Of a stretch of DNA of 64,000 nucleotides, positions 1,056 to 64,000 are shown piece after piece. A program made the position numbers and the translations under genes. Origin of the DNA: Seison nebaliae (lineage: Eukaryota); the NCBI GenBank assembly GCA_023231475.1, contig JALJEE010002620.1:1-64000 (forward strand), written 5' to 3'. The stretch's first letter is position 1. Each line of letters opens with the position of its first letter. Under the pieces are notes generated by a model. It saw only the letters and a program-made list of their open reading frames with translations, made no database searches and was not told the DNA's origin.

Positions 1056-2420
1056 TTAATTTTTATTGATAATTCCTTGAATCCAACTTATATAATTCGG
1101 CAAGTTGGTATAAACACCGTAACCGTCGCAGTTAGTTGTTAATCCATAACTTGTGAGACCGTATAAAGTCCATTTTCCGTTTTCTTGTCGAGCCAATGGT
1201 CCACCACTATCGCCTCCACAAGAATCTTGGTTTTCATCCGGATCTCCAGCACATAACTGTGAAGTGGTTTCTGATGATGGTATGCTACAAGTGGCATCAG
1301 TTCTTGTATTGATTTCAACCGATCGTAAATCATTTGATGGTGCTCCAGTGCCATCTTCAATATACAAATTTCGAAGAAGGTGGTTAAGGATAATTTTTTG
1401 AAAATTAATTACGTATAACCTTCTGTTGTTCTTCCCCAACCAGATACTGTTACTTCATTATTTGCACCCAATTTAGTCGTACCCAAACACACGGGAGCAA
1501 TTCTATCCGTATAAGTCAAAGGACTTGATAATTTTATTAAGCTTATATCATTCACTAAACGTTGTTGAGTAGTTGTAAAACCAGAATGCTGCAAAGAAAA
1601 GATGAATTTTTATAAAAATAGAGCCAGAACTAAAATATCATTAACCGTAAAAGTTTTTGCAGATTTCTTCGTTACTTCTCCCGTATCAGGATCATCGATA
1701 TCACTGTTACCTGCTATTACTGTAATATCTCCAACACTGACAATAATTCAAAGTAAGAATATTTAAAAACAAAAAAAAATTAACGCATTTCTCAAACAAT
1801 GAGCGGCTGTTACTATCCAATACTCATTAATTATCGATCCACCACATAATCCAGTAATTCCTAATAGATATTGTGATAGAAAATATTCATATTTTTACTA
1901 ACCATTTTTAGTTATGAACAATGTAACAATATGTGGAACTGAAGTTGGTTGAACAACATTTCCATTAACTATTCTCGATTTAGCCGATCTTCCCACTCCA
2001 CAATCGATCGGAACTATTGAAAGACATTCAAAATTTGAATATTTACGGAGCATTTCGTGAAATTCTAACGAGAATTTGCTATGACATTTGCACTGTTACC
2101 AGTGACTGTTGTGTCAGACGCACTTGTTGCACTATTACTACTACTACTGCTACTTGCTGGAATAAAGTAAAATAAAAATATTCATAATAAAGGAAAACAA
2201 TCACTTGATCCATAAATTGCGGCAATGACTCCACCTATCACTGCTCCAACAAGCAATAACATGAGTAAACCGAAAATTCTAGAAAGATAAATATTGGCGA
2301 ATAATTTCAATTGATATCAAACAAGGCAGTAGGAATTCGTTTCTTACGAGGTTCTTGCACATAACCGAAATTATCATTGAATCCATAATAGTATAATGGG
2401 TAATCTGATATTGCATACAT
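1056..2420 (-). CDS. Type II transmembrane trypsin-like (S1A) serine protease, 8 exons
   Basis: Introns at 2279-2322, 2157-2198, 2014-2069, 1861-1902, 1737-1784, 1589-1645 and 1355-1419 (all GTT..AG on the - strand) give one frame: short N-tail, hydrophobic segment (LIFGLLMLLLVGAVIGGVIAAIY), Ser-rich stem, activation site CGVGRSAKSR-IVNG, then VTAAHC, NDISLIKL and QDSCGGDSGGP (Asp in the S1 pocket). Confidence 0.92.
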
Positions 2421-2509
2421 TATTCCTCAATAAATTTAAACTCATCAAATTTTCAAAACTTTAATTATTGGACATTTAATATCTTATCCAACTAACGCTT
2501 CTTTCGATT

Positions 2510-2534
2510 GTATGACGTGCCTCTTACGTCATAC
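2510..2534. promoter_or_regulatory. Inverted pair of CRE/ATF-like sites upstream of the protease gene
   Basis: gtatgacgt-gcctctt-acgtcatac is a perfect 9-bp inverted repeat, each arm carrying TGACGT, about 90 bp upstream of the ATG at 2420. Function is inferred only. Confidence 0.35.
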
Positions 2535-3125
2535 TAAAAGATTTGAATAATAATGTTTATTTTATCTACCAATTTCAATTGAGTTTCCTATTCCTATAAC
2601 CATCGTGTAGTCGATAGACATTAGCTAATCTGTATGTGTGACAAATCATGAAACTTAAATTTTCCTAAAATTATTACTGACCTCTTCAAGGAAAACATAT
2701 TAGTTAACATTCTAGAATTCAATTTTGTCATTTTATTAATTTTAACCAATAAATTTTAAAAAAATCTCCAAAAATATAATATACAAATTTTACTTGTAAG
2801 TAAAAATTTATTTGAATGGCAATTTCCAATTGATTAAAATATTTGCATTATAATACAATTATAAAATATATTTATCGATAACTATATCGCTAAAAGATAA
2901 CTTTCTCCAAAGCCATGTTCTTTTTATTAAGCCATTAATATTATTTTTAAATTAAACGAATTAAAGTCATTAAAAACAAATACTATAAAAACAATATATT
3001 ATATAAATTAATCAATATCATATTTGTAGAATGTTCAATTGAAACACACTTAAACGTCAAAAAATGGAGAATAATTTAATGGAGATTCCTTTAGGGATCG
3101 ATCGTCGTTGGTTCGGTGTACATAT

Positions 3126-6112: not shown

Positions 6113-6122
6113 AATTTTATTT
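6107..6122. terminator. Palindromic, bidirectional poly(A)-signal element between convergent genes
   Basis: aaataaaattttattt is a perfect 16-bp palindrome giving AATAAA on both strands. It overlaps the MRPL44 stop and abuts the xylosyltransferase stop; the two CDS ends are 9 bp apart. Confidence 0.6.
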
Positions 6123-8653
6123 TATGCTTCTAAATTTATTTCATTCAATTTCAAATAATTCCAAGAACAATTATTGGAGAATGATGAAATTAAATTTAAA
6201 TTTTCAATTTTCTTCCTCAATTCCCAATCGGAATTCTCATCAATTCTCATTTGACAATAATTGACATCGAATAAATTTCTCTCATAATATTTGGGAGTAT
6301 TTTGATGAAAATAATAAAAATATTGAAAGAATAATCCCAGCCAATTATCATCAATCCAAATTTCGAATATAATTCGAATTATATTCCCTGAAATATTTCC
6401 CATCAATTCAATTTCATCAATCAAAATTATCGATCTAGAATAAATTTCCGTTTGATTCGTTTCCAATTGAATGAGTTGTCCTTCTTTAATAATTTGATTC
6501 AATTCTCCATTCTCTTCTTTCAAACGTATTCGATAAGGAATATTCTCCTTCTTCATTTGGATCGATGTTATCCAGAGAACTAATGTCAATACTCGATATC
6601 GATTAATGATAGACAAAGGAATTTTTGATTTGAACGAATTGGAATGATAATCATAATCATAACCAAATCTGAATGATCTCAATTTGAACCATCCATTCTT
6701 CAAATCGAATATTTGAGAATTCAATTTGAAATTCTTTTGAGAATAAGTTAAATTGAGGAAAATGATGGAAATCAATTGACATCGTCTGATATGAGGGAAG
6801 AATATTCTCTCTTTAATTTCACTGAACAAATTAAATTGGAAGATGTATGATTGAAAATGATCTAAATTGAACAACTTTAACAATTTCATATTTGTCAAAT
6901 AGAAAAAATGATTTTTATTCATTTCCATTTTTATCCTCAATTTTCCATCAATCTTCCAATTGATGATATTGAATCGTTTTCTAATGATCTTTAAGAAAAT
7001 GTTATAGAATAATAAATCCGTTTCTTTTTCATTCGATTGTACGAATGTTTTCATTTGTAATCGATTCTTCATTTTTCTTAATCGAAAAATGACGAAATTT
7101 ATGATTTGTTGACTTTTTTCCTCGTCGAATTTCCTCGCCAACAAATAACCGTGGTTCTTCAATAGACTGTTCACAATCACTTGATCTGTCAATTGTTTAT
7201 TATGGAAATTCGTTAGAGAATTCCAAGTGAAAGTTTTCGGCGATTTCCCACAAACTTCACTTCGATATTGATTCCGTTTGAGACAATGTTTCTGATTCAT
7301 CTCCTTCTGATCGTCGATATTCCAATAAATAAATCTCAAATTATTTCCAATAACATTCTCACAATATCTCGTATTATATGTCACTAAATGGAAAAATGTC
7401 TAATTTTAATTGAATTATGAAAAATTGAATTATTAAGAAGGAAAAGAAACTTCTGAAGACATAAAACTATTTAAAGAGAATTTATAAAATTTGGAAACTA
7501 TCGAAAATTCTTTTTGAAAATTCTCGACTAAATATTCGATGAAATTTTTATTCAAAATAAACCAATCACTTCCACCTTCTAATAGGAAACCTGTTCAGAT
7601 GAAAAATGATAATTAATAAATAATTTAGAAAAAATTTTTAAATTTTCAACCGAAAGGGAAAGATCGATAATGGTCATGAATAACTTTCTCTTTTTCATGA
7701 TTCTCTCTGATCGAGAACGATATGGCTTGTGTTTGATAGAACTTGATAATTTGTTCGTTCAAATCATTCTTCTTCGTTTGATGAGATGATAAGAAATTCT
7801 TTTTTTTATTTACACATAGAAAATGTTGGATATATTCCAACGATTTCATGGGCAGATCAGATTCACTTAAATTAATGATAAAATTCCATGAAATATTTAG
7901 ATGAGTGATAATGTAATTGAATGAATAAAATTGCATTTCCAATATGGACATGCCTCCCCAAAGACAATTGAAACGACGTGGAAGGAAATAAATATTTGAA
8001 TATTTCTTCAGACGAAATTTGAACTCCCACAAATCATCTCCCAATTTCTCGTCGAGATGAATCAGATAAAGATGTTGAAATGAGTAAATGAGTTTTAATA
8101 AATTTATCATTTGTTGAGTTCGATGAGTTGAGAATTGGAGAAAGAAAATTATACGAAAATTCTTATCAGAACAATTTGTAATTTTATAATTTTGAATGAG
8201 TTCTTTAATATCGGATGAGATGACGGAATTGGATCGATATGAAGTTTTTAATATTGTGAATAAGTTTTTCGATTTTACAAGTGTCTCATTATCACTTGTC
8301 GATAATAATTCGTTAGAACAGAAACAACTTTTTTGAGAAAGTAATTTCTCATTTTCCAGATGATGATATGTTTCTTTTGTCCAATATGCAAATTTTGAAT
8401 GGAATGTGAAACAAATTCTCGCACAGAATTCAAACGATTTTGCATCATTTTTAATTAATCGATCGATATCTGATTTGATCAATTTGAAGGAAAATAATTT
8501 TTTCGTGTCATTGGAATGAAGTGGAACATTCTCTCTGATGATTTGCCATGATGAACCTGTTCGGAATAATTCACATTCACCACCAAATAAGAATTGATTT
8601 GTGAGAATTGGTGGATAATTAATTAATAATATGATCAATAATTCACTAAACAT
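6122..8653 (-). CDS. XYLT: Peptide O-xylosyltransferase (GT14; XYLT/oxt/sqv-6 family), 3 exons
   Basis: N-terminal hydrophobic segment and a Cys-rich WSC-like region, then GT14 motifs HLYLIHLD, WGGMSIL and WNFIINLSESDLP. Introns 7591-7650 and 7400-7450 restore GGSDWFILN and SSE|TFFHLV..C....NNLRFIYWN, followed by CGKSP and LARKFD. Confidence 0.85.
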
Positions 8654-9033: not shown

Positions 9034-9049
9034 TATATATATATATATA
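9034..9049. repeat. (TA)8 microsatellite
   Basis: tatatatatatatata in the intergenic region between XYLT and the 9424 ORF. Confidence 0.7.
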
Positions 9050-20517: not shown

Positions 20518-23195
20518 ATGAGAATGATTGAAGATAGTGTGCAACGATTGCAGACTTTGGAGAAGAAAGCATTTCCCACGAAATCTCCCGAAATAACTGA
20601 CGATTCGACAGCTAGTTGGCAGAAATATTTGAATGATAAAATCGAATTGACAGATACCGTTCGAAAATCATTGGAAACGATTACGAAAGAGAAACGAATT
20701 CGAACAATCGCCATTCATGATTTCAAGGCGAGAGATGGAGATGAATTATCATTTAAAATTGGTGATGAGATCGAAGTTGATTTCTCGTCGAAACATTATG
20801 GTTTGGGATTTTGGTATGGAAGATTGATATCTGATAAGAATGTCAAAGGATATTTCCCACATCAACATGTGAAATTGCCGATTTTAGAATCGTTGGAAAA
20901 TGATGGGAAATTCCGAAAGAATATTCCTCGTCAAAAATCGTCATATGAAAAACGAAAATTTTCACGTCGTTCACGTGAACAGAAACGAGCACAGACATCC
21001 ACTTTACAAATACCGATTACCCCAGAAAAAACGATCACTGTTGATGAGAAGAGTGAAGTGAAGGAATTAATTCCGATATTAGAAGAAACTCAATTAAGTC
21101 CAATTGATGATACAGTTCAATTGAGACGATTACCAAAATCTCAGAAAAAGAAGAGATTAGATAAAACGACGAGTATTTTATTAGCAGATGAAGTTGAAGA
21201 ATTTCCAAGAGATCAATTCAATTTAGATTGGAAAGATGGATTTTGTGGTGCCGGTGCTTATGGTTCTGTCTATTCAGCTAAATGGAATTATTTGGAAGAT
21301 AATCGAAAAAATTCGATTAAAGTCGCTGTGAAAATTCCAAATCAATCATTCACTAAAAATGATAATAAAGATGAAGTGGTGAAAGAAGCAAGTTATTGTC
21401 GATCACATAATGAATTGTCACATAAGAATATTGTTAAAATTTTCGGAATAGTCGAAATTGTGGAACGTCATAATTATGGAATAATTATGGAACTTTGTGC
21501 TGGTGGTACAGTATTCGATGCGATTCATACTCTACATAATTTATCGTCATCTGTCATTATTAATTGGGCATTACAAGTGGCGTCTGGTTTGAAATATTTA
21601 CATCATCATTGTCGTCCAGCCATCATTCATCGAGATATGAAGAGTCCGAATATTTTGATTTATGAACAAATGGATAATATTCGACAATTGGATGATAATG
21701 AATTGAAGAGATGTATATTGAAATTATCAGATTTCGGTGTAGCGAAAGAAATCGATTTCGATATCTGTTCGAGAGAAATCGTTTCGAAAATTGTTGGAAC
21801 AAATAGTTGGACAGCGCCTGAAACTTTCCGAGAACAATGTTATACGAAATATACAGATGTTTGGGCATTTGGTGTTTATGCTTGGGAATTGTTGACATGT
21901 GAAATTCCTTATAAAGATTTAATCGCTTGTCAAATCACTTATGGAGTGGCAGTGGGAAAAATTCAATTGATAATTCCATCAGATTGTCCTGATGATTATC
22001 GAACATTATTAGAGAATTGTTGGCATTATACGCCGAAAATGAGATGGGATTTTACAAGGATTTATGAAGAATTATTGAAAATGTCATCTGTTTCCTCGAG
22101 TGAAACATTTAAAATTAAAGATGAAAATTTCAATGGGGAAATTGAAGAGGAATTCGAACCACAACTCGATAGTGGTTATAATGATAATTATTTAGATAAT
22201 AAAGAAGAGAATATGAGAATATTATCGAGAGGACCAACGGCAATTATGATGGATTCCGATTCAGATGATATGTTAGCAGAAGAACATTTATTGAGTATTA
22301 GTAAACAAGATTTGAAAGCGAAACGGAAAAAATGGAAAGAAGAGAGTAGTGCACAATTGAGGAATGAAATGGAAATTTTAGAATGTGAAATTAATCAACA
22401 ACGTGAAATGAATATAAGAAATCGAATGAATATGGATACGACCGATACGTTATTGAGAGAGAAATTGTTGAAGAAAGAGAAAGAATATTTCTTTCGAGAA
22501 GTTCAACTTTATATGTTACAACAAGAACAGAAACCATGTCACAAAAATCAGCCAAAAGAATTTTTGAAAAATCTTTTAGGAAGAGTTCGATCAAAACGGA
22601 CACATCGATCAAAAGATTATCGTAATACATCCATTCAACGCGATATCTCTTCACCGACAAATTTCGAACATGTGAAAAATGTACGTCCATCAGATAGTAA
22701 GAGTGTAATGGAATTATCTCAATTAATTCCCGAACATAAACGTGAAGGTGAATCTCGTACTGCGTCGCGAATGCGAGCCGATTTGCCCAAATTGAGAACG
22801 AATTCGAAAAATCGATTAAATTCTCAAAGTTTTAAATTTTTTTTCAAATTCTTATTTTTCTCTTTTGTTAAGGTACTGATGTTTCAGATATTTCTCCCGT
22901 CAAATCCATTGGTGATAATACTCATGTTTTATTGAATTCTTTATTGGTGCCATCACCATCAATACAATCGTCCATTGGTACTAGTGATGATTCAAGAGAA
23001 TCATATGAAACTGCGTCCAATCTCTCTCAGTCAAAGAGTCCTCACACTAAACATCATCATCAAAATAATTGGAGAGTGGAGAACATAATCGATTCGATGA
23101 AAGATAACGACGTCTACAAACGGAAAGGTCAAATCGATTTCACTAAAAATTATATTGATATTCCAAATCAATTAAATTTGAATCAGAAGAAATGA
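20518..23195 (+). CDS. Mixed-lineage kinase (MAP3K9/10/11, slipper-like), 2 exons
   Basis: SH3 domain (AIHDFKARDGDELSFKIGD..GFWYG..GYFP), kinase motifs GAGAYGSV, VAVK, HRDMKSPN, DFG and WTAPE, a coiled-coil/zipper region, and CRIB motif ISSPTNFEH. One intron at 22829-22872. Confidence 0.9.
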
Positions 23196-29175: not shown

Positions 29176-30386
<1,211 letters not shown>

Positions 30387-42600: not shown

Positions 42601-45600
42601 TGCCAATTGAATAAAGCCAAACCTTATCAGTATGAGTGTAAATGTCAAATTTCGTATGAAGGAAAACATTGTGAAATTATAAAGAAATGCCAACCGAATC
42701 CGTGTAAGAATGGTGGGATTTGTACATCGTTAGCTAATGGTGTGGTTACTTGTAAATGTTCAATGGATTATGTTGGCAGCCATTGTGAAAAGTTGAAAGT
42801 GTGTCAATCAAACCCTTGTGGTAATAATGGGAAATGTGTGCAAATTAATGAATTTTCCACTTTATTCCGATGTGAATGTTTGAGGAATTATGTCGGAACA
42901 TTCTGTTCCTATTATTTGCCATGCCAAAAGAGTCCGTGCTTCAACGGTGGGACTTGTGTGCCTAATAAAAGGAATGGAAGAAAATGTATTTGCACTCCAA
43001 AATTCACTGGGAAACGTTGTTATTATCCGATACGTTGCATACCAAATCCCTGTAAGAATAACGGTGTTTGCCGTCCGGAAGGATATGGTTCGATTGAATT
43101 GCGATGTATTTGTAAAGGAAATTTTGTAGGAAAATTCTGCGAAATACATCGAGTTTGTCTTCCCAATCCTTGCGTTAATAAAGGAACATGTGATGCACAA
43201 ATGACACATCTTCAAATAAGACCCAAATGTAAATGTTTATCAGGTTACACGGGGGAACTATGTGAGACACCGACGAATTGTTTATATTCACCTTGCAAGA
43301 ATAGAGGACGTTGTGTGGGTGATCATGTTCATGGTTATATGTGTATCTGTCTACCCGGTTTCTTAGGTAAACATTGTGAAATAGTGAGTGGATGTCGACC
43401 AAATCCTTGTAAGAATAACGGGAAATGTCTCCCCAAATTCTATAAAATGAACAAAATTAAATGTATTTGCAAACCAGGTTTCACCGGTTTGAATTGTGAA
43501 TATTCGATTTCTTGTTTATCTCATCCATGCATGAATGGTGGTACTTGTGTAGGTACATATTCTTCTATCATATGTAAATGTCTACCCATTTTCACTGGTC
43601 GACGTTGTGAAACATTAACCGCCTGCATCAATAATCCATGTGCAAACGGTGGGATGTGTGAAATGCTTTATACCGGTGCTACTACCGCCCATTGTAAATG
43701 TAAACCAGGTTTTGTCGGGAAATATTGCAGGAAATTATTATCATGTTATCCGAATCCATGTGCTCCGAATGGAAAATGTAAACCGATTCAACCTGGTTCA
43801 ACCAATTACCGATGTGATTGTCTAAAAGAATTTATTGGTCCCAAATGCAACATACTAAAAAGCTGTGTAAAGAACCCTTGTCAAAATGGTGGTAGTTGTG
43901 TATCTGAATGGGTTGGTTCAAAACGTTACAAATGTTTATGTCTTAAAAGTTTCACGGGAAAGAACTGCGAGAAAGCATTGGCATGTCTTGTCAATCCATG
44001 TCGTAACGGAGGAACGTGTAGTGGTGCCCAAGATATGAATATCATCGACTTCACTTGTAAATGCAAACCGGAATATGCAGGAATGTTATGTGAACTATTA
44101 AAATTATGTGAACCAAATCCTTGTAAGAATTATGGTGAATGTGTACCCAAATTTGTAGGTTCAACTGAGAAAAAATGTCTATGTAAACCAGGTTATGTGG
44201 GAGATCATTGTGAAAAACTGAAGGAATGTGAAAATAACACCTGTAACGGTCATGGAGAATGTGTGGCGAAATATGCAAATTTACCTGTAGTTCATTGTAT
44301 TTGTAATTCGGGTTACACAGGAAAATTTTGTCAATATTCACTTACCTGTATAAGGAAACCATGTTTCAATGGAGGTACTTGTAAAGTTTCCGAATCTTCG
44401 ACAATAAATCGAATCATTTGTATATGTCCTCCGGAATTCACAGGTGCACGTTGCGGCAAGTTGAAAGTATGTGTACAGAAACCATGTAAGAATAATGGAA
44501 AGTGTAAACCGTTGTGGAAAGGTTCCACTCAATTTAAATGTGTTTGCACCAAAGACTTCACAGGTCTCTATTGCGAACAATATATCAGTTGTCTGAATAA
44601 TCCTTGTAGAAATGGCGGTTCCTGTCAACACCAAATAATGAAACATCCTTCCTACATTTGTCTGTGTCCTAATGGATTTACGGGCAAAAGTTGCGAATCA
44701 TTAAAAAGTTGTTTCCCAAACCCTTGCTTAAATGGAGGTAAGTGTCAACCAGCATGGTTAGGTGCTACAACCGCTAAATGTGTATGTAAAGGTGACTTTG
44801 GTGGGGCATATTGCGAAAAGTTTATTAAATGTTATCCTAATCCTTGCAAATATAACGGCCATTGTTCATATGACACCACACATAATATTAAATGTTCATG
44901 CAAACCAGAATTCACCGGTCCCAAATGTGAAACAATTATTGGGTGTACAATGAAACCATGTCGAAATAATGGGAGTTGTATATACGACCCCACAAAAGAC
45001 GTAAAATATAGATGTCATTGTTCTTCACAATTTATCGGGGATTATTGTCAAAATGCTATTGCCTGTGTTCCTAATCCATGCTACAATAGTGGCACATGTA
45101 AATTTGATCAGAATTTACATAAAACCGTATGTATCTGTCGTTTGTATTATACGGGGAAGTTGTGTGAGAAATCGATCGCTTGTTTATCCAATCCGTGTAA
45201 AAATCAAGGATTGTGTAAAATGGATAAGTTGAAATTCATCTGTCAATGCCAATCCGGATTCATTGGCACTTATTGTGAAAAGTTGAGAGAATGTGAACCT
45301 AATCCATGTAGAAATGGAGGAATTTGTGCACCCATTTGGCCTGGTTCCTCCCAACATGTGTGTAAGTGCAAAAATGGTTTCACAGGTCCTCTATGTGAAA
45401 ATTTCCTGAATTGTCTGTCAAGTCCATGTAAGAATGGTGGAACTTGTTTATCGAATGGTGGCTGTAAATGTTTGAATGAATTTATTGGATCTTATTGTGA
45501 ACATTATAAAGGTTGTTCACCAAATCCCTGTAAGAATGGAGGACAATGTTCGGCTTATTTGTACAATGGGCAATATGTTTTACGATGTGCATGTAAGGTT

Positions 45601-48600
45601 GGTTATACGGGGAAATATTGTACGACCATAATAGCCTGTTCCCCAAATCCATGTCTAAATAATGGAAAATGTAAGATAAAAAAATTGAACGTTTTCGATT
45701 TCACATGTGAATGCGAGAAGAAATTTACGGGAAATCGTTGTGAATTACCATCAATCTGTTTAAATAATCCGTGTAGGAATAATGGGAAATGTATCAGCGG
45801 TGTCCACCAACTGTTTAAATGTATTTGTCCCGTTGGATTCATTGGCGATAGATGCCAGAATGTGGCAGCTTGCCAACCTAATCCCTGTCAAAATAATGGT
45901 CGTTGTTCCATATCGAAATTGGGATATGGTTATCAATGTTTCTGCACGACGGACTATTATGGTGATAATTGTGAATTGCCTACGATTTGCCGCCCGAAAC
46001 CTTGTAAGAATTCCGGTATATGTTTTGTGAAAGATGGTAAATTGAAATGTTTATGTAAATATGGTTACACAGGTATTCTTTGTGATAAAGCTCTTGCTTG
46101 TCAAACAGCACCTTGTCTTAACGGAGCCACTTGCATTCCTTCACCTACCTTATACGGTGATTTCAAATGTTTATGTCCGCCTAATTTCACTGGTCGACAT
46201 TGTAATTCTCCATTAATTTGTTTAACGAAACCATGCAGTAATGGTGGATCTTGTTTGAAGAATGACACAACTGGAATAACTTATAAATGTCTTTGTTCGA
46301 AAGGTTTCACGGGCAACAACTGTAATGTTTTAGCCGCGTGCGTCCAAAAACCTTGTGAAAACGGAGGTACGTGTTCGCCAGCTTGGTATGGAACTACCAA
46401 ATATAAATGTGTTTGTCCTCCCGGTTTTTCCGGAACTCATTGCAAGAAATTTCTTCCTTGCTTCCCTAATCCTTGTCTGAATTTCGGTATTTGTGGAAAT
46501 AAACCATTACCGGCGCTGGATTTTGAATGCAAATGCAAAAAACCGTTCAAAGGTAAATTATGTGAAATTGCCAAAATTTGTGAGAGAAAAATCTGTTTTA
46601 ATGGCGCACAATGTGTGGCTAATGCAAATTTGAAATTACCATTTAAATGTATTTGTAAACCTGGATATTTTGGGAGGAGATGTGGTCGGTTAAAGGCGTG
46701 TTATCCTAATCCTTGTGAAAATGGAGGAAAATGTAGACCGATAACTGCAGGATCTACTGAAATAAAATGTGTTTGCTCACCCGGATATACTGGTGCGACT
46801 TGTAATTTAATTTCGAGTTGTATACCAAATCCTTGTATGAATTTGGGTAAATGTCAAATGAGAAAAGATGCTCCTACTTCATTCCAATGTGTTTGTGGCA
46901 AGGAATATACTGGAAAGACATGTAAACTATTGAAAATATGTTTGAACAATCCTTGTCAAAATGGTGGTAGTTGTGTCCAACATCAATGGAATTCTCCCAT
47001 TCATAAATGTTTATGTCCGAAAGAATTCGTGGGAAATAAATGTGAAATTTTCAAAGGTTGTTCACCGAATCCATGTAAGAATGATGGACTATGTTCGTTT
47101 AGACCTCCAAATATATTCCATTGTAAATGCAAAGAATATTTTTATGGAAATCATTGTGAGAGGTTGGTAAAATGTAGTAAGAATCCTTGTAAGAATGGAG
47201 GGTCATGTAAACAAGTCACTCCTGGTTCAACTGAATATGAATGTGTTTGTCAATCCAATTATGGTGGTAAAAATTGTGAAGTTTCAATTCAATGTCAGAA
47301 AATTGAATGTTTGAATGGAGGAACTTGTAAGGTGGTTAACACCACAACTGCCAAATGTGAATGTTCGAAAGAGTTTTATGGAAATCATTGTGAGAATCTC
47401 AGAATATGTCGACAGAAACCATGTTTAAATGGTGGAACATGTCGACAGTCACAAGCGGCCTCCACAAAGTTCATATGTGATTGCGCTCCTGGATTCAGCG
47501 GTAGTCATTGTCAAATATTATCAAATTGTGCAAATAATCCATGTTTGTACGGAGGTAAATGTATACCGAACCCCAAAGATCAGACAAAGGTTTTATGTCA
47601 ATGTAATAACTTTTATACGGGAGATAAATGTGAAACTCTGAAGCATTGTTTGATGAAACCTTGCAAAAATGGTGGAACTTGTCTCTCAATACCATTAAAG
47701 ATTGGTTTGTATAAATGTGTTTGTTCGAAAGGTTATATAGGTCAACATTGTGAACAACTATTAAGTTGTCAATCTAATCCTTGTTCCAATGGTGGAACGT
47801 GTGTTCCTGCTTGGGATAAGTCTGTAGATTTCAAGTGTTTATGTTCCGAATATTTCGTGGGTAAATTATGTGAGTTACCAAAAATTTGCCGACCCAACCC
47901 ATGTTTAAATCTTGGAAAATGTCATGTACATGCTGTGGATAAGAAAAAATATTTGTGCCAATGTGTCTTAACGTATTTTGGTGATAATTGTGAGAAATAC
48001 AAACCGTGTTATCCTAATCCGTGCGGTAAACATGGAACGTGCATTAAACCTTTGGATCATACAAGTTATAAATGTATCTGCGCTCCACATTATACGGGAA
48101 GTGATTGCTCATTGGCAATTGGTTGTTCCCCCAATGTTTGTTTGAATAGTGGAAAATGCGGTTTATCTGAAAAGGGAGACCAAATAATTTGTAATTGTAC
48201 TGTCGATTACTACGGACGGTTATGTGAATCATTAAAAGTTTGTAAGAGTAATCCGTGCCTGAACGGAGGTATTTGTAAATTACCTTTCCCAATTTCAACA
48301 AATTATTTATGTGCTTGCAAACCCGGGTTTAATGGGCAACGATGTGAAATATTAAAAGCCTGTATACCCAACCCGTGTTTGAATAAAGGTGTCTGCTCAT
48401 CTATTACACCCGGTTCATCTGCAATCATGTGTAACTGTAAATCGGATTTCGTGGGGAGTAAATGCGAAACTTATGTACCTTGTTTTCCGAATCCTTGTCG
48501 CAATTCAGGGAAATGTCGTAAAAATATTGGGAAACCTAAAAAATATGAATGTATCTGTACTCGTTATTACATTGGGGAACATTGTGAAGTTCCACAAAAG

Positions 48601-51600
48601 TGTTTGGTGCCACCTTGTAAGAATCATGGGACATGTCAACCGATAATTTCAGCACCGTTCTTCAAGTGTTTGTGCATTGCAAATTTCGTGGGAGAACTTT
48701 GTGAGAAATTTAAAAAATGTCAACCTAATCCTTGTTTGAATGGTGGCATATGTGGAGTAATGGATTCAATAGGAACTGATTTTAAATGTACCTGTCCTCC
48801 TGATTATCAAGGAAAGAAGTGTCAAATTTATAGATATTGCTTGCCCACTATCTGTGCTAATGGGGGAACGTGTATCCCAATAAAAACTAATGAAAAATTC
48901 AAATGTCAATGCACTGATAAATTCAAAGGGAAACGTTGTGAGAAGAGAATTGTTTGTAAATTTGCTCAATGCAAGAACGGGGCAACATGTCAACCAATGA
49001 CAGATACAACATACAAATGTAATTGTCCTTCAGGATTTTTCGGGAATTATTGCGAAATTAAAAGTTCGTGTTCCACGAAGAACCTCTGTCAAAATGGAGG
49101 AACTTGTTCAGATATTTTAATTCCACCATATTATGAATGTAAATGTCGAAGGATATTTAAAGGAAAACATTGTGAAATACAAATTCCATCATGTCAATTA
49201 GGGTTATGTAAGAACGGAGCGACATGCAAGCAACATCCTGATTTGAAGCAGTTTCGGTGTATTTGTATCCAACCCTTCGGTGGTCGTTATTGTATAAAGA
49301 ATGTTGGATTTTGTCATTATAAACCGTGTGTGAACGGAGGAATTTGTAAGAATGTTAATCATAACTCTGGTTTTGTTTGTCAATGTCCGAAACCGTATAT
49401 TGGTAAGAGATGTGAATCAAGCTTGGGTATATGTACAATTCTCCCGTGCAAGAATCATGGCACCTGTTTACAGAATGAAATCAATAACATGATTTATAAA
49501 TGTCAATGTCATGCTCCATTTTATGGTGATTCGTGTGAATTAGTTAATCATCATTGTGATATGAATCCTTGTAAGTATTATGGGAAATGTATACCGGTAA
49601 TCAATGGTCGTTATAGATGTAAATGTCGAGAAGGTTTTTCAGGTGAACATTGTGAAAATAAATTAGTTTGCTATAGTAATCCGTGTAAGAATAATGGAAT
49701 GTGCATAAAAGATCCGAAAACGGATCGATTTAAATGTATTTGCAAAATACCATATCATGGTCGACGATGTGAATTGAAGATGGGAAAATGTTACAGTAAA
49801 CCGTGTAAGAATAAAGGGAAATGTAACGAATTCGATGAAACGTTCTCTTGTGAATGTCCTTTGCCATATACTGGACGTATCTGTGAATTGGAATTAACCG
49901 CATGTTCATTCCATCCGTGTTTAAATGGCGGTCGATGTATTCAAAGTATCACCAGTAAACGGAAATACAGATGTGCCTGTTTGAAACTATTTACAGGTAT
50001 TAATTGTGAAAACCGTTTGAGCGCTTGTGTAGTTAGACCATGTAAAAATGGCGGAACTTGTATTGTCGATCCATCAGATCTCAGTAAATTTAGATGTGTG
50101 TGTGGTAGGATTTTTACCGGAACCACATGTCAAACTAGTTTAGGGGCCTGTTCATTGAAACCATGTGCTAATGGTGGAAAATGTGAAAATTCACCTGATA
50201 AAAAGCAATTCCGATGTATTTGTGTTAAACCGTTTTCTGGTGCTCAATGTCAGAAGAATGACGGTGTTTGCAAATCAGTGAAACCATGTTTGAATAATGG
50301 AAAATGTATCGATTTAGGTGGCTTGAACTATCAATGTATCTGTTTAAAAGGTTACCATGGCGACAGATGTGAGATAAAAAGTGCTTGTCTCAGTAATCCG
50401 TGTTTGAATGATGGTACATGTGTCAAACAACCGAACGATTATAAATGTATTTGCAAATCGCCCTTTGTCGGCAAACGATGTGAATTACGACAACATCCTT
50501 GTAAATCGCTACCATGTCTCAATAGTGGAACGTGCATTTTGGCGGCAAATTTTGATTATAAATGTGTTTGCAAACTACCGTTTCATGGAAGACGGTGTGG
50601 GAAGAATGCTGGTTCTTGTTCGTTAAAACCGTGTTTGAATGGAGGAAAATGTTTGCAACATAAAGATCTCATCCAATTCAAATGTCAATGTTCGAATTTA
50701 TTCACTGGACAATTATGTGAGAGAATAATTAGTCCGTGTGAGACCAAGCCTTGTTTGAATAATGGAAACTGTTTAATAATCGATGAGAAGAATTATAAAT
50801 GTGAATGTCCTCCACAATTCACTGGAGTGAAATGCGAGAAATTATTTGATGTTTGTACATTATCTCAATGTAAAAATGGTGGGACGTGTGAAGCGGTTGG
50901 TTTCGATCAATACAAATGTCTTTGTTCAATCGATTATTATGGAAATTTATGTGAAAATGAAAAAGTGTGTAAGACGACCAGTTGTTTGAATGAGGGGAAA
51001 TGTGTGGTGATCAATGAATTAGAATTTCAATGTGAATGTAATTTGAACTTTGGAGGGAAGATATGTGAACATGCCAATCCGTGTAAGAGTAATTCCTGTC
51101 TAAATAATGGCGTATGTTTTCCTCAATATTCGGATAAGGTTTCTTTCTTGTGTGAATGTACGGAAAAATTTGAAGGAAAAAATTGTGAGAAATATGTCAA
51201 TCCGTGCAGGAATATTCAGTGTCTGAACGAAGGAACTTGTAAAAATCAGGGACATGCCAAATTCGTTTGTAAATGTCCTGTGAAATTCACCGGTCGATTA
51301 TGTGAAGTTGAAATTCCAATTTGTGAGAGTAAACCATGTAAAAACGATGGTATTTGCACTTCAGATGATTTCAACGAAGAATTCACTTGTAATTGTCCTC
51401 CGAAATATACGGGGAAGTTTTGTGAAAAAATTAAATTATGTACTAAACATCCGTGCAAGAATGATGGAATTTGTACGGATTATTTGAATTCATTCGAATG
51501 CGAATGTACTATACCGTTTTATGGAGCGAAATGTGAGAAAGAAATTTGTAAGCCGAATCCATGCAAGAATAAAGGCGTTTGTGAAATCGTCAATGAACAA

Positions 51601-54600
51601 GGCGATTATATTTGTAATTGTGTTCCGCCTTATACTGGACGAATCTGTTCGAGAAAATCTGGAGATTGTTCAATCGGCTCATGTTTACATGACGGTCAAT
51701 GTCTATTCGATGAAGAAACGACGAAATATTCTTGCACTTGTAACGAACCGTTTTATGGTAATAAGTGCGAGAAGATGAGAACAGTTTGCGATCAGAAACC
51801 ATGTCTCAATGGAGCGAAATGTAAAGTGATTGGAGATAATTATTTCGAATGTATTTGTAAAAATGGATATGCCGGACGGTTATGTGACATACCTCCCGAT
51901 CCATGTCGACCGAATAAATGTCTGAATAATGGTATTTGTGAAATGACAAGTAGTAAAAATTTCAAATGTGAATGTACTCCAATTTTCACGGGAAGATTAT
52001 GTGAGAAACGAATTTTTATTTGTAAATCAAAACCATGCAAAAACGATGGAAGTTGTTTGGACAATAAAGATGGAACATATGAATGCATTTGTAGTGTCGG
52101 TTTTAAAGGCTTAACATGTGACATCGAAGCTCCTTGTAGTAAGAAACCGTGTAAGAATAGTGGTTATTGTAGTTTGATAGGAGAAGGTAAATATAAATGC
52201 GAATGTTCATTACCATACTATGGCGAACGATGTGAGAAGCATTTATGTAAACCGAATCCTTGTAAAAACGGCGCATCTTGTGAATTGTTACATCGAGATA
52301 CGGAATTTCGATGTATCTGTCGAGTACCATTTACGGGTCTTTATTGCAAAATAAAAGCCGGATCATGTACCCCAACTACTTGTAAGAATGAGGGAGAATG
52401 CATTTTCGATTACGATACGGGAACATATCGATGTCAATGTGGTAGAATATTTTATGGTGAACATTGTGAAAAGACGAAAAGTGGTTGTGATAGACGACCT
52501 TGTTTGAATAAAGGGAAATGTAAATCGTTAACTTTCCCCCGATATCAATGTATATGTGTCAATGGGTTTAGTGGGCGACGTTGTGGCATTCCACCAAATC
52601 CATGTGAACCGAACATCTGTAAAAATAATGGAAATTGTCAGCTTATGGGAAATTCAAAATTCTCTTGTGAATGTCCTCCAATTTTCACAGGGAGATTATG
52701 TGAAACAGAAATATTGGTATGTAAAAGTCAACCGTGCAAGAACGGTGCACTATGTATCGACAATAAAGATGGGACATTCATATGTCAATGTAAGATTGGA
52801 TTTATCGGTGATTTCTGTCAATTGGTAGCGCCGTGTGCAAGTGTGCCATGTAGGAATGACGGAGTGTGTCATGTGCGATTAGGTGCAATTGAGTGTGAAT
52901 GTGTTTATCCGTTTCATGGTGTGCGTTGTGAGAAAGAGTATTGTAAACCGAATCCATGTCACAATCGAGGGCAATGTGAATTGGTTAATAATAATATTGG
53001 ATATCGATGTCGATGTATTCCACCATATATGGATCTTCTTTGTAATGTGAAAGCGGGCTATTGTACACCAACAACGTGTGCTAATGGTGGATATTGTGTG
53101 TTCGATGAGGAAAGACGACAATATATATGTCAATGTCCCTCACCATATTACGGTAAGAGTTGTAAGAAATTTAGAACGCCTTGTAATGAGAAACCTTGTC
53201 TTAATGGAGGTAAATGTAAACCGATCGGATTCGACAATTATGAATGTCAATGTGTTAATGGTTATAGTGGGATGAATTGTGGGCGCCCACCAGATTTGTG
53301 TTTTCCTAGCAAATGTCAAAATAGTGGCAGATGTGAAATGATAAATGTGAAACAATTCGTTTGTTATTGTCCCCCGATCTTCACCGGAACGTATTGTGAG
53401 ACTCGAATTCTGATCTGTAAAAAGAAACCCTGTCAAAATAATGGAGTATGTGTCGACAATATGGATGGAACATTTAATTGTGAATGCAAATTAGGATTCT
53501 TTGGAGATTATTGTGAGAAACGAAACTATTGTGCGAATGATCCTTGTAAGAATGGAGGAGCATGTAGACTTGTCGATGGGATACTGGAGTGTTCTTGTAA
53601 ATTTCCGTTTTATGGTAAACGATGTAAGAAACAAATTTGTCATCCGAATCCTTGTCAGAATAAAGGAGTTTGTGATGTGTTGGAAGAGAAAGAAACTTAT
53701 AATTGTAATTGTGTTCCACCATTTATCGGTAAGAATTGTCAGATTCGTGCAGGAACTTGTTCCATCACTTCCTGTTTGAATGGAGGAATTTGTATGTTCA
53801 ATGTTGAATTAGATACATTCCAATGTGAATGTAATGAACCGTTTTATGGTAAGAAATGTGAAAAGGTTTTCACCATTTGCAGTGGGAAACCATGTCAAAA
53901 TGGAGCATTGTGTAAACCGAAAAGTTCGAATGAATTTGATTGTGTTTGTAAGAATGGATATTCAGGGAAATTGTGTACAATCCCACCATCGATTTGTAAC
54001 CCGAACAAATGTCAGAATGGTGGGCATTGTCAAATAGTTTCGAGGAATAAGTTCCGTTGCGATTGTCCTCCACCATTCATCGGACGATTATGTGAAAAGA
54101 GAATTTATGTGTGCAAAAGTTCTTCTTGTAAGAATGATGGGAAATGTCAGGACAATAATGATGGAACATTTTCGTGTCTATGCAAGAAAGGATTTGTTGG
54201 ATTGTTGTGTGAGAATCAAAAACTTTGTGATCAACATCCATGTAAGCGAGATGGAATTTGTAGAGAGGTGGATGGACATATCATATGTGAATGTTCATTT
54301 CCGTTTTATGGTGAAAAATGTGAGAAAGAACTGTGTAAACCAAATCCTTGTCAGAATGACGGTGAATGCAATATAATTAATATCGAATCAAATTATCGAT
54401 GTAATTGTCGTCCTCCGTTTATTGGACGACATTGTGAAACGAGTATCGGAAAATGTTCCCGAACGTCATGTCTCAATAATGGTCAATGTATTTTCAATTC
54501 AGAAGTTCACTATTTCCAATGTCAATGTATTCGACCGTATTATGGTGATAATTGTGAGAAATTTTTCACCGTCTGTGATGCAAATCAATGTCTCAATGGA

Positions 54601-56096
54601 GGTGTTTGTAGAATTGTCGATACAACTAATTTTGCATGTGAATGTGTCCACGGATTTAGTGGCGAACGTTGTGCAATTCCACCCAATTTATGTCGTTCTC
54701 ATATTTGTCAAAATAACGGCGAATGTCAAATGGTGAGTGCGGCGGATATCGTTTGTAAATGTCTACCACGATTCACCGGTAAATTTTGCGAAACGAGAGT
54801 GTCAATTTGTCAAACGATAATTTGTTTGAATGGAGGAACATGTGAAGAAATCTATAATGATGATTTTCATTGTTCTTGTCCATCAGGATTCTTCGGGAAA
54901 TTATGTGAACAACTTGATATTTGTTCTACAAATCCTTGTCAAAATAATGGAATATGTCAATTGACAAGTGAGAATAACGACCATTATTCATGTCGTTGTT
55001 TACCAGTTTATTATGGGAAGAATTGCGAAGAACGAATAAGTCCGTGTATGAAAGGTTTATGTAAGAATGGTGGAAGTTGTGTAATTGTGGCAGAAAGTAA
55101 ATTCAAATGTGAATGTCAATCAGATTTTGAAGGAACATTCTGTGAAGTAGTAATTGGTTGCCAAACAAATCCTTGTTTGAATAAAGGCAAATGTACGAAA
55201 CATTCTCATTTCGATTTATATAGATGTGAATGTCCGATAAACTTCCAGGGTAGAAGATGTGAACATCATCTCGATCATTGTTCATCAACTGTGTGCTTTA
55301 ACGGAGGACGTTGTGGTCAGTATTCGAGAAATGGACAGATAATTATTTATTGTGAATGTCTACCCAATTTCGGTGGGCAACATTGTGAAAGAGATGAGAG
55401 TTGTTTAGTAAATAATTGTGCGAATGGAGGAAGTTGTGTTGAAACACCGACATCTTTCGGCTTTATTTGTTTATGTCCATTGGAATTCTTTGGAAAAGCT
55501 TGTCAATATAAACGAGATCAATGTCCAAATAATCCTTGTAAAAATAATGCACATTGCTACTTTACTAACGGAAGAATTCACTGCAAATGCTCCAACGGAT
55601 ATTATGGATTATATTGTCAACATTTTAAAAAGGTATGTGATATTAAGGAAGAACAAACATTCGTTATCGCTTCAGTAAATCTCAATTATTACAAACATAC
55701 ATCTTCCAAATTCGTAAGTTTCTTTGTTCATGATGAGAATCCATTTAATCGGCGCAACTGTCAATTTAATTACACTCCTCAAAGGTTCATTTAGATATTA
55801 ACACTTGAAAACTCTTTAATAATCTTAACAAATATTATTCTAGTTGTGATGACCGATTTTGTAGCATGAACGGGAAATGTTATTTATGTGCAAATGGAAA
55901 TTATCGTTGTGATTGTAATAAATTCTTCGAGGGTAAAACATGCAATGTACGTCGGAAACATTCAATCGGGAAATTTGTAACTAAAATCGAAACCGACTCA
56001 TTGACTTTATTAAGTACAACTGGCACTCGGAGAGATTTCTTCATCTATGAAACCGATTATATAATAACATCGAAAGATAATCTGTGTTATGTTTAA
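30688..56096 (+). CDS. Giant secreted multi-EGF protein, ~8,398 aa, about 200 tandem EGF-like domains, 5 exons
   Basis: Exons 30688-30781 (signal peptide MKEILILLWILPILFIDLISS), 30834-30890, 30942-31017, 31068-55784 and 55844-56096 total 25,197 nt in one frame. Continuous C-x2-(N/K)PC-x-NxGxC..CxCxxxF/YxGxxCE modules. No transmembrane segment seen; AATAAA at 56097. EGF count is estimated from length, not counted. Confidence 0.9.
51547..55026 (+). repeat. Five diverged tandem six-EGF super-repeats (~696 bp) within the giant gene
   Basis: Equivalent C(K/H)PNPC modules start at 51547, 52246, 52942, 53638 and 54334 (spacing 699, 696, 696, 696 nt), with the same order of module types in each unit. 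Confidence 0.85.
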
Positions 56097-60469: not shown

Positions 60470-62988
60470 TTTTCGTTCTCTTCTAATTTATTTCTGTACT
60501 TGTATATTTTCCTTTTGTCGCTTCATATTATTTTCCTTGCAAATTATCTCATATTTAAGAATTTTTGAAATTCTTTAAGAAATTTAGAATTCTCAACTTT
60601 AAATGTTGTATTTCCAATCCCAATAAACAGTGAAAAAAGAACCGCAAAAATATTCATGTTTTATATCAAATATTTAGTACATAAAAAAAAGAATGAAAAC
60701 ATCGGAATTAGTTGGTGATTCTAACATTGTAATGTCGATGTTCAGATGGTAAATCATAAGAACTTATGAAATTAAAATTTTGTCAAAAATTTCTCTACCA
60801 GAAAAACCACGAAAAAGTGAAACTTATTTATTTAAACTAATCAACACTAACATAACAAAACATATTGTAAAAGAAGTTGGATAAAAATAATTGGTTCATG
60901 TAGTAGTAAAAAATTGTAAGTGAAAATAATTTTCAAATTTTTATTACAGTATCTTTGAGATACGAAATAGAGTAGAAGATACTCTAAAAATATGACGTCA
61001 AGCACGGCAATAAAGACACATTGAAAATAAAACACGATTGTACGACATGTGGCAGTTGATCCACGCGGCAGTCGAAATTTTTCAACTTTTTTTTTAAACC
61101 TCATTTTCTATCAGAAATATTTAACTTACCATTTTAAATTTAATATATTTAGAAAGAGCTCGAAATGCTCTACAACACAGTTATTTCTACTTTTCATTTT
61201 ATTCTAAAAATCTAATCATAATTAAGAGTTTTTTAGTTAAACATATTTTAAAAAATCAATTTTTCATAAGACTTTAAGTTTGAAGTTCAAACTTGGTCTT
61301 ATGGGTCTTATGTGGTTCTTATATTGGTTCGATTTTCTTGACATTTTTGTTATAACTTTAGACCATCCTTCTGATGTATTTTTAAAAACAAAATGAAGTA
61401 AATCCGTTCATTTTGAAAATATGGACGAAATCCCCACCAGACATTTTCCTTATTTTTTGTGAAAACGGACAAACAGGATAAAGAGAAAAACGATCATGGA
61501 CATGTACATTTTTTCATTCTATAATTCCGTTGGTGTAATAGGACTTTGTAGTACTCTTATTCGAATTGTTTTTGTGGTTAGGCAAAATTCCCAAAATTAC
61601 AAAGAATTCCTACTAAATTTACAGAAATAACTGATAATTTAGGTCATTCCATGATATTTTCTGATGATAGTGGAAAATTCTGTTCATTCTAATATCTTGT
61701 TTATATATTTATTATGTCTGATTGTTACAATTTTAATGATGTTATTGATTATATTAATGACATTATGCAATCTTATGTACAGTATCCATTATAGTTGTAT
61801 GAACATTTTTTGTATAATTCCAGTCTAAAAAAGTCAACGGGAAAATCTCTCTTTTATATCTTGCTATTGTTCCAAATGACTAATTGATTAAAATTATTGA
61901 AACAACTTCTGAAAAATCGATATGCAGTTCAACATTTTCGATGTAAATATTTTTCAATTATAATTTACTTATCATGTATTATTACCATGATTTCCTTGTC
62001 ATATATACAGAAATCATCATTACTAACCATTCCCTGGTAAGTTTCCATTCTGTTTGGCTGGTATTTATGTTGGCATTTATGTTCTCTCTGAGCAAACAAG
62101 CACTTAACCTTCACATCTTCTTCTCTTTAAACGGCATTTAAATATTATCAGTTCGATCTCAGACTCTGACATATTTCCTCCACCATATTCTTAATAGGAA
62201 AGATTAGCGTCAATGAATTTGTTTCAGTTCTTATTGAGTAACATAAGAGAATATATTTCAAATTTATATATCTCGGTTTATCCTAATGATTCTGTTCTAA
62301 TTAGCGATCAATTACTCTTGCCGGAATTTTTCTCAAACTATTCTTAATTCAGAAATTGAACATACTAATTGACAAGAATGACAGTTGTTCAATTTCATAT
62401 TATTGCTCTGAGCAATAATTACCATTGTTTACTACTGTAATATGAACAATTTGTTCATATATGTTTGCTGATTAATTTTTTGCACAATTTCGATATATTT
62501 CAGAAAGTAGAAACAGAAAAAGAAGAATAAGGATATTAATCCTTTCTCATAAGATAATTAAATCCTGTGTCAATGTTTTTTCTTTTCGAATATGAAACAT
62601 AAATTTAATTTTGTAACTTAACAGATGAAAATGATTAGAAGTTTCATTACAAAATTTATGGTCGACATAATATTGTGTGTATTGAATGCAAACATAGGTT
62701 ATGGGAACCTAAACTTCAGGCACCATATTATTTCTAAGACTGTGAATGCATTAAAGTTGAAAAACTGCTTGGAAAAACTTCTTTAATACCACTTAAAATA
62801 TCAGTAGAATCATCATAAACAGCTAGCTAATTGTTGAGTTGGACATTTTTTTTTATTTCTTTCGTTCTGTATAAACTTACACATTATTATACATTAAATC
62901 ATACTACATTGTTATACAGTTAGATGGTAAGATTAGTCTTAAAGAGAGAATAGAATGAAGTACAGGGTGTTTGCGATGTTCACTTTGG

Positions 62989-62998
62989 ATGACGTCAT
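62989..62998. promoter_or_regulatory. Full CRE palindrome just upstream of the GalNAc-transferase
   Basis: atgacgtcat, a 10-bp palindrome containing TGACGTCA. A second TGACGTCA is at 60993-61000. Confidence 0.4.
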
Positions 62999-63009
62999 AT
63001 TGAGTATGA

Positions 63010-64000
63010 ATGATGTTGAAGAAAAATAATAACTATCAATTGAACGAATTAGAAATAATGATACGTCGTAAACTTTCATCACTAGAATTCTATATTCTTC
63101 TGATTATTTTCTTCTATTTCATATTACTCCATTATAAATACCTCAACAAATTGGAACGGTCTGATGAACCAAAAAATAAAAAAATATTTGCGTTACGTAC
63201 CACATCACGGGATCAACCATTCTTTCACAAAGAACATGAATTTCAAAAAAAAGAAATTGATTTAGCAACCAAATTTAAAGGAGAACAATTGAAGTTCCAA
63301 TTTAATCAACAGGATGACCCCAAATCATTAGTCGAATATGATCGATCGATGTTGGGGAATTATGAGTCGGAATTATTCAAAACAGATTCTTCCGTTTTAG
63401 GTTTCCTTCATTATCCAAGAGAAGAAATATAATATAGCATTTAATAGGCCAAAATGGAGTTGCTGTTGATGATCGACTAGTGGTTGATCAGAATGAAAAA
63501 GGAACATTACAAAGGAAATATGGTTTTAATATTGCACTCTCAAATAAAATACCATTAAATCGGTCCATTATCGATAATCGACATTATACGTTTACATTAT
63601 TTTTTTGAATTAATTTTACAAATGATCATTTAATTTTAGATGTAAATATTGGCATTATCCACCCGTCGAACAATTACCAACCGCTTCAATTATCATCGTA
63701 TTTTATAATGAAGGATTATCTGTCGTCCTGAGAACGATTCATTCAGCTTTACAAACATCTCCTCCAGCACTCATCAAAGATGTAGTGTTATTTGATGATC
63801 ATAGTGACGAAGGTTAATTTAAAATTATATTTCATTTTACATTATTTATATTTAGAATATATTACGAATGGAGACTTACAAAAATATTTGAATACTCATT
63901 TCGACAACAAAGTCATATTTCATCGAAATCATGAACGTCTCGGATTAATAAAAGTTTCATTTTTTGAATATAATTTAAAAGTTCTTTCTATTATTCTCAT
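63010..64000 (+). CDS. Polypeptide N-acetylgalactosaminyltransferase (GT27, GALNT7/pgant7-like), 5' part; runs off the window
   Basis: Type II anchor (FYILLIIFFYFILLHY). Introns 63401-63447, 63590-63639, 63813-63855 and one starting at 63954 give YGFNIALSNKIPLNRSIIDNR, CKYWHYP..LPTASIIIVFYNEG..VVLRTIHS, VVLFDDHSD and RNHERLGLI. The start may be 63010 or 63058. Confidence 0.9.

Follow-up and report, generated by a model that had tools for sequence, protein, structure and literature searches.

GTT donors almost without exception in a 64-kb window of the Seison nebaliae genome, and candidate readers of GUU

The standard donor (5' splice site) of U2-type introns joins an exonic (A/C)AG to an intronic GURAGU (PMC3488318). 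We found a donor with U at the third intron position (+3) in print only for Entamoeba, in which donors read GUUUGU(U), the U1 small nuclear RNA (snRNA) carries a compensating ACAAAC, and the ACAGA box of U6 is unchanged (bioRxiv 10.1101/2022.06.08.495308). Within the accessible portions of the articles cited here by PMC or bioRxiv number, an animal case appears to be new. We analyzed 64,000 nucleotides of Seison nebaliae DNA (contig JALJEE010002620.1, positions 1 to 64,000, forward strand; ‘the window’ refers to this whole stretch), in which introns start with GTT almost without exception. Seison nebaliae is an epizoic rotifer that lives on crustaceans and belongs to the Seisonidea.

GTT donors in the window

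We identified 50 donors in eight genes on both strands, comprising 49 complete introns and a GalNAc-transferase (GALNT) GTT donor at 63954, with its acceptor past the window end. GT...AG ends restore the reading frame in 49/49 complete introns, and read-through is impossible in 46 of these (frameshift or stop). The introns are U-rich, 81% AT, and 38–68 nt long with a single exception of 310 nt. Deposited proteins were mapped without a splice motif, by listing every gap placement that yields the exact protein. Each of the 31 introns in the myosin (17) and chitinase (14) genes has exactly one GT-AG placement under this mapping, and all 31 are GTT. Together, the deposited proteins of three genes define 38 introns: 37 start with GTT, and one is a tandem site deposited as GTG and GTT isoforms. 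Our own gene models add introns in the actin (1), xylosyltransferase-like (XYLT, 2), GALNT (3, plus donor 63954), MLK-like (1), and EGF-repeat (4) genes.

For statistics, we used an anchored set of 45 introns, which is the 49 complete introns minus three 5' introns of the EGF-repeat gene and the tandem site (37 from deposited proteins, 8 from our own models). The +3 base is T in 45/45 and a purine in 0/45. This is far above the GT background, whether taken from the whole window (0.362, p = 1e-20) or from GT inside introns (0.537, p = 7e-13). A frame-keeping non-GTT donor is wholly absent for 30 of the 45 non-EGF introns (the EGF-repeat gene is left out of this count; alternative-donor counts for its introns are unreliable).

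The genes and introns are as follows.

1056..2420, minus strand: trypsin-like protease SNEBB_010663 (Pfam Trypsin), 7 introns; deposited proteins P0305/P0309 map over 324/324 residues
2322-2279, 2198-2157 (or 2204-2157), 2069-2014, 1902-1861, 1784-1737, 1645-1589, 1419-1355, minus strand: protease introns
2157..2204, minus strand: tandem donor of the protease, GTG at 2204 and GTT at 2198, common acceptor 2157
6122..8653, minus strand: xylosyltransferase-like gene (Pfam Branch), 2 GTT introns (7650-7591, 7450-7400); spliced frame open, 806 aa
10351..18609, plus strand: myosin XV-like gene SNEBB_010668, 17 GTT introns, from deposited protein P0169 (KAI3380096.1) and foreign myosins
10713-10761, 10826-10873, 10984-11048, 11185-11246, 11571-11625, 11794-11845, 12013-12062, 13029-13077, 13628-13676, plus strand: myosin introns 1-9
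14528-14590, 14878-14929, 16736-16781, 17228-17282, 17653-17696, 17801-17849, 17975-18022, 18144-18189, plus strand: myosin introns 10-17
20518..23195, plus strand: SH3 and kinase (MLK-like) gene (Pfam SH3, PK_Tyr_Ser-Thr), 1 GTT intron (22829-22872)
23756..28110, plus strand: two-domain GH18 chitinase SNEBB_010671, 14 GTT introns, from deposited protein P0001 (KAI3380099.1), foreign chitinases and domain alignment
24000-24047, 24388-24444, 24533-24591, 24730-24777, 24892-24947, 25165-25202, 25718-25778, plus strand: chitinase introns 1-7
25898-25942, 26067-26110, 26270-26315, 26436-26479, 26607-26916, 27295-27333, 27568-27607, plus strand: chitinase introns 8-14
29182..30386, plus strand: actin, 1 GTT intron (29801-29868)
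30688..56096, plus strand: EGF-repeat gene (Pfam EGF), introns 30782-30833, 30891-30941, 31018-31067 (or, with GTA, 30996-31048) and 55785-55843, from parse enumeration
63010..64000, plus strand: GalNAc-transferase running past the window end, GTT introns 63401-63447, 63590-63639, 63813-63855; spliced frame open

Foreign proteins recover the same donors. We aligned 12 foreign myosins and 11 foreign chitinases with a spliced aligner whose only splice motifs are GT/GC and AG, so that it has no +3 preference. In the regions tested, each of the 19 annotated donors was recovered, by 3 to 12 queries, and 36/36 well-anchored calls fell on eight annotated GTT introns. Among our own models, XYLT exon 1 matches human xylosyltransferase 1 (E 1e-14) and neither intron has a non-GTT alternative; a search with the last XYLT exon found no solved relative. 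Actin exon 1 aligns without gaps to solved actins as far as the junction, and the intron is frame-breaking with no non-GTT alternative. The MLK-like intron at 22829-22872 is likewise frame-breaking without a non-GTT alternative, with no homologue anchoring its junction. The alignment of GALNT exon 3 with solved GALNTs extends to the D-D-x-S-D stretch that precedes donor 63813, and this rejects an in-frame GTG 9 nt upstream.

Sequencing contigs from four runs, aligned to 10400-12120, contain no joints and carry no weight either way. In run X1, a low-depth contig shares about 86% identity with 107 bases of a myosin exon, and its match continues through the donor sequence GTTGA (11794-11798) before the two diverge; it may represent a diverged copy (paralogue or second strain) that keeps GTT. 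Low-depth contigs of runs X1 and X2 at 11242-11350 and 11692-11798 are about 86% identical in myosin exons and have unlike introns, as would a diverged second copy.

The initial annotation had described the same 50 donors in the same eight genes, all starting with GTT and none needing GTA or GTG. All 50 are indeed GTT-compatible and the 45 anchored introns are all GTT; ‘every’ is slightly too strong, given the GTG isoform deposited at 2204 and the EGF-repeat gene, whose three 5' introns have no homology anchor and whose third reads equally well as GTA (30996-31048) or GTT (31018-31067). The +3 U is accordingly near-fixed rather than absolutely fixed, as the deposited GTG isoform indicates. The protease site at 2198/2204 had also been named as the only intron with an in-frame GTG alternative. 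It is not alone in having a non-GTT alternative: an in-frame GTA, GTG, or GTC donor for the same acceptor exists in 9/49 introns; deposited proteins or homologues favour GTT for most of them. The GTT pattern very probably holds genome-wide.

A chitinase exon is 99% identical to the deposited protein SNEBB_010671 of Seison nebaliae, and SNEBB_010671, SNEBB_010668 (myosin), and SNEBB_010663 (protease) all come from one 74,454-base contig. The window has a G+C content of 33% with closely packed genes; the genome is reported as about 44 Mb, with 31.9% G+C and compact genes (PMC8351084). Introns are concentrated in 8 of 13 genes. The other five appear to be intron-less: 3126-4961 (minus strand), 5261-6112, 9391-9900, 18792-19484, and 57401-60469 (all plus strand). 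Two of these have no Pfam match, and the others are mL44-like, TMEM70, and MABP1/WDR62-like WD40. An exact protein look-up with these five single-exon reading frames gave no match for 4/5. Positions 31068-55784 (plus strand) read as one exon of about 24.7 kb, encoding about 8,240 residues of EGF repeats, though the genome's other genes carry 50-nt introns. A fragment of a retroviral-type aspartyl protease at 162-506 (plus strand) is probably a retrotransposon remnant.

Donor context and bdelloid-like myosin XV loci

On the exon side of the 45 anchored donors, −3 is A or C in 32, −2 is A in 31 and C in 6, and −1 is A in 22 and G in 15. On the intron side, +4 is A in 16 and T in 18, +5 is A in 19 and G in 9, and +6 is T in 20, A in 17, and G in 2. 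Positions +4 and +6 lie at intron background and carry no signal. The initial annotation's count of +5 G (about 9 of 50) is reproduced, with 9/49, and its statement that +4 to +6 information is lost applies to +4 and +6; +5 G is threefold enriched (9/45 versus a 6.3% background, p = 0.002). T is raised at +9 (35/45, p = 3e-4, uncorrected for roughly ten positions). The exon side is retained, with z = 4.6 in the normal register and 1.5 in a register shifted by +1, and A at −3 to −1, where the exon pairs with U5 loop 1, reaches z = 5.0. A trade-off between −1 G and +5 G is not visible in these donors (p = 1.0, n = 45). GTC donors number 0/45, which has a probability of 2.5e-4 if any pyrimidine would do.

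The acceptors of the 45 introns are TAG (22), AAG (13), and CAG (10), with no GAG. A branch-point search revealed no position-bound motif: 6/7 4-mers are not enriched, and TTGA is enriched (13 versus 4.3) but scattered. U12-type (minor) introns were rejected, as the donor RTATCCTT occurs in none of the 49 introns (27 donor hexamers). The last protease intron (1355-1419, minus strand; donor GTTATA) contains TCCTTAAC about 25 nt before its acceptor, possibly by chance, in 1/49 introns; TCCTTAAC is the minor-intron branch consensus (PMC3488318). Within the 310-nt chitinase intron, 26607-26799 likely holds an alternative last exon with an acceptor at 26677 and an acidic tail of about 40 residues, its stop ending at 26799. 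This exon would yield a chitinase without chitin-binding domains, using the same GTT donor.

For comparison, we queried metagenomes with Adineta steineri myosin XV and obtained 71 loci, of which 15 were aligned with the aligner used for Seison and nine were counted (L001, L002, L003, L005, L019, L026, L032, L036, and L040; 81–96% identity to bdelloid proteins). We left out L027 (a near-copy of L026), L004, L050, L055, L057, and L058 (non-rotifer, 48–62% identity), and two calls at the start of L003 that were not gap-free. The counted loci gave 53 well-anchored introns at 12 positions, with +3 A in 43, T in 9, C in 1, and G in none. GTT thus starts 45/45 Seison introns versus 9/53 bdelloid-like introns (Fisher p = 5e-19, with copies at one position being non-independent), and counted by position, 10/12 are mostly GTA. 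The comparison supports a lineage-specific change at +3, from purine to U, and the collapse of signal at +4 and +6. Intron-side consensus differs to the same effect (z = 0.9 in Seison versus 7.2 in the outgroup). Median intron length is 54 nt in the outgroup versus 49 nt in Seison, and composition is similar, with 81% of outgroup introns being GTA.

Of the nine Seison introns within the part of myosin that can be aligned, six (10826, 10984, 11185, 11571, 12013, and 13628) coincide in position and phase with bdelloid-like introns. At these six positions, Seison has GTT in 6/6 and the bdelloid-like copies have GTA in 26/27; these are therefore converted old introns and not new mobile insertions. 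In the chitinase, three intron positions are common to both GH18 domains, which are 28% identical. All nine outgroup GTT donors follow an exonic −1 G, compared with 15/45 in Seison, where 24/45 lack G at both −1 and +5. Both groups show a weak −1 G and many AAG acceptors (about 27%; 14/53 in the outgroup), and the degeneracy is therefore specific to Seison only in part. The absence of +3 G (0/53) and the restriction of GTT to a minority after exonic G in bdelloid-like donors could represent a step towards the Seison state. The pyrimidine preference at acceptor −3 looks relaxed in both.

Candidate readers of GUU

As causes, the initial annotation had put forward a changed U1 5' end, a changed U6, or a protein reading GUU, and indirect tests narrow the choice. 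The +3 base faces a U (pseudouridine) of U1 and, later, G44 of U6. We assign a probability of about 0.5 to the reading that GTT donors are due to an A opposite +3 in the 5' end of U1, which would pair with G-U-U and not G-U-A; the predicted change is ACUUAC to ACUAAC. Seison donors match canonical U1 at a mean of 4.3/9 positions versus 5.8 in the outgroup. An unused nearby GT outscores the used donor in 12/27 Seison introns with such decoys versus 4/35 in the outgroup (p = 0.007). Changing the +3 partner lowers decoy wins to 7/27 and lifts the mean score from 10.7 to 12.7. The absence of GTC in 45 donors points to an A partner or a U-specific protein and not to a G partner. The poor canonical fit, the lack of GTC, the failure of a shifted register, and the Entamoeba U1 precedent together favour a U1 with A opposite +3.

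Under this changed U1, the introns would be substrates of the major spliceosome, chosen by intron definition through tight length, U-richness, GUU, and HAG. The exon end may pair with U1 and U5 loop 1, and U6 ACAGA pairing at +4 to +6 would now be mostly dispensable. GTA could have passed to GTT through the GTT-after-G minority class, an intermediate visible in the outgroup. The full scenario is somewhat less probable than the U1 change by itself, and we propose it tentatively: an animal major spliceosome recoded so that a rewritten U1 reads a three-letter GUU, U6 pairing at +4 to +6 is largely given up, and ancestral introns move from GTA to GTT via the class seen in bdelloid-like loci.

Several observations weigh against the changed U1. 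The two deposited protease proteins use both donors of the tandem site, with KAI3380090.1 (324 aa) using GTG at 2204 and KAI3380091.1 (326 aa) using GTT at 2198. They differ by six bases, which suggests transcript evidence behind the models. The GTG donor is thus probably usable, and an A opposite +3 would not pair with it. If U1 read GUUAGU, +4 A and +6 T should be enriched, yet both stand at background (16/45 and 20/45). The score gain with the +3-changed guide is partly circular, and 7/27 decoys still win. An Rfam search of the window gave 0 matches, snRNA genes included. Canonical U1 is kept in most lineages with altered donors, including yeasts, Giardia, Trichomonas, Thecamonas, and Micromonas (bioRxiv 10.1101/2022.06.08.495308). 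The evidence comes from eight genes in one 64-kb window, with donors known from gene models and frames rather than RNA junctions, and the outgroup is one gene with 12 positions in nine metagenome loci, assigned to bdelloids only by 81–96% protein identity.

The snRNAs may instead be canonical, with a diverged protein reading G-U-U (U1C, LUC7, PRP8, SNRNP27K, or a TIA-1/Nam8-like U-binding factor aided by the U-rich intron start). We consider this unlikely, if the strongest of the alternatives. Specificity for U only is as compatible with a protein pocket as with an A partner, RNA pairing would be thin even with a changed U1 (24/45 donors lack both −1 G and +5 G), the +9 T enrichment (35/45, p = 3e-4 before correction) is consistent with such a factor, and Caenorhabditis elegans SNRNP27K mutants alter +3 preference (PMC11732430). 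Set against these, the sole +3 U lineage found in print has an RNA-level change, and the supplements of the genome paper contain none of six splicing terms searched. A U6 reader is less probable again: G44 of ACAGAGA could have become an A that pairs with +3 U, or a canonical G44-U wobble could compensate for lost +4 to +6 pairs. The +3 base normally pairs with G44 only weakly (PMC11732430), and GUUUGU could pair better with ACAGA (bioRxiv 10.1101/2022.06.08.495308). However, a canonical G44 would be expected to take C even more readily than U and GTC is 0/45, an aggregate +4 T/+5 G/+6 T signal is absent (z = −0.3), and the box belongs to the catalytic core and is unchanged in Entamoeba.

The pattern might also be local or partly an annotation effect, with GTT merely a large class genome-wide and GTA or GTG introns missed by self-trained models and frame reading. 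The GTG isoform and the GTA reading of EGF intron 3 point this way, as do intron-like in-frame candidates inside exons, 12/19 of which are non-GTT. Foreign myosins also called in-frame GTG/GTA gaps at 12118 (12/12 queries), 12232 (7/12), and 12848 (12/12). These gaps are stop-free, A-rich, and within variable loops, and their scores (−0.04, −0.24, and −0.05) are at or below the least intron-like true intron (−0.04; true-intron tenth percentile 0.025); they are probably coding insertions. With 46/49 introns frame-forced, a hidden class would mostly show, and the 36/36 well-anchored foreign calls and the spread over both strands and eight unrelated genes make this explanation improbable. Canonical U1 pairing in a +1 shifted or bulged register, with +3 U at the usual place of +2 U, would explain a fixed +3 U with no snRNA change, and such registers have reportedly been described for human 5' splice sites. 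It draws support from −1 A (22/45, p = 0.04) and +5 purine (28/45, p = 0.002). The register (−2 C, −1 A, +4 A, +5 A, +6 G, +7 T) nevertheless predicts −2 C and +6 G, which occur in 6/45 and 2/45; the enriched base is +5 G, the intron side has z about 1 in either register, and at an overall z = 1.5 the register is not supported and is very improbable. Recent introner copies starting with GTT, or plain AT bias, would suit short, uniform introns in an AT-rich genome, and pairwise similarity slightly exceeds shuffles at the 99th percentile (33.7 versus 29.5). Yet the best pair scores 40 where shuffles reach up to 50, and the mean is 17.5 versus 16.8. Intron positions are shared with bdelloid-like loci (6/9 in myosin) and between the 28%-identical GH18 domains (three), and AT bias favours A as much as T, with outgroup introns of like composition being 81% GTA. 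Common positions, lack of mutual similarity, and outgroup GTA rule out both origins.

Relation to known splicing systems

Our literature searches revealed no account of GTT donors for Seison, rotifers, acanthocephalans, or any other animal; a paper on the annotation of these genomes (Hagemann et al., 2024, doi 10.1007/s10750-023-05268-6) could mention donors. Such donors are not described in the accessible parts of the Seison, Pomphorhynchus, and intron-survey literature (PMC8351084, PMC10125929, PMC12256650, PMC11347168, PMC10599564, PMC10639083, PMC7310846, and PMC3488318). In the accessible text of PMC8351084, ‘splic’ occurs once with no donor consensus, and two supplements contain none of six splicing terms; in that of PMC10639083, the sole mention of Seison is in a supplementary list of species.

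Few features of animal genes are as conserved as the 5' splice signal and its U1 reader, and a switch needs thousands of donors and a reader to change together. Seison would provide an animal test case for donor choice with little pairing, and for which step (U1, U6, or a protein) fixes +3. The route of the switch should be accessible too, as these same introns can be seen in their earlier state in bdelloids, and genomes, transcriptomes, and small-RNA data of the group are publicly available. In practice, gene finders that rely on a generic animal donor model will put donors in the wrong place in Seison.

Some atypical human 5' splice sites are said to use a shifted register (attributed to Roca and Krainer, 2009). 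They resemble Seison donors in the GUU start, often after an exonic A, and differ in being rare and in carrying a complete consensus displaced downstream by one base (−2 C, +6 G). U5-class 5' splice sites, which have a strong exon end and weak +4 to +6 (PMC11732430), share with Seison an information content that lies on the exon side, with little on the U6 side. Unlike Seison donors, both these sites and those of the yeast switch linked to METTL16 and SNRNP27K keep a +3 purine. U5-class sites also depend on −1 G, and the yeast switch occurs at +4, to U, with +5 G fixed, whereas the Seison shift is at +3.

Relative to U2-type introns, represented by the bdelloid-like loci, Seison introns are alike in GT-AG ends, a length of about 50 nt, common positions, −2 A, weak −1 G, and about 27% AAG acceptors. 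They differ in +3 T (45/45 versus A in 43/53) and in intron-side signal (z 0.9 versus 7.2), and do not follow the GTRAGT consensus. Entamoeba is alike in having a near-fixed +3 U in GT-AG introns of the major type, in a host-associated lineage whose introns are AT-rich. It is unlike Seison in that its donors gained information (88–90% GUUUGU, 97–99% GUUUGN), its branch point is constrained, and it is intron-poor (bioRxiv 10.1101/2022.06.08.495308). Seison does not follow the strict GUUUGU of Entamoeba, with +4 T, +5 G, and +6 T in 18, 9, and 20 of 45 donors and GTTTGT in 0/49. Where the Entamoeba signal became stricter, that of Seison becomes shorter, about three intron letters: this animal, with genes of 14–17 introns, keeps only GUU, with +4 and +6 at background and +5 G at 20%.

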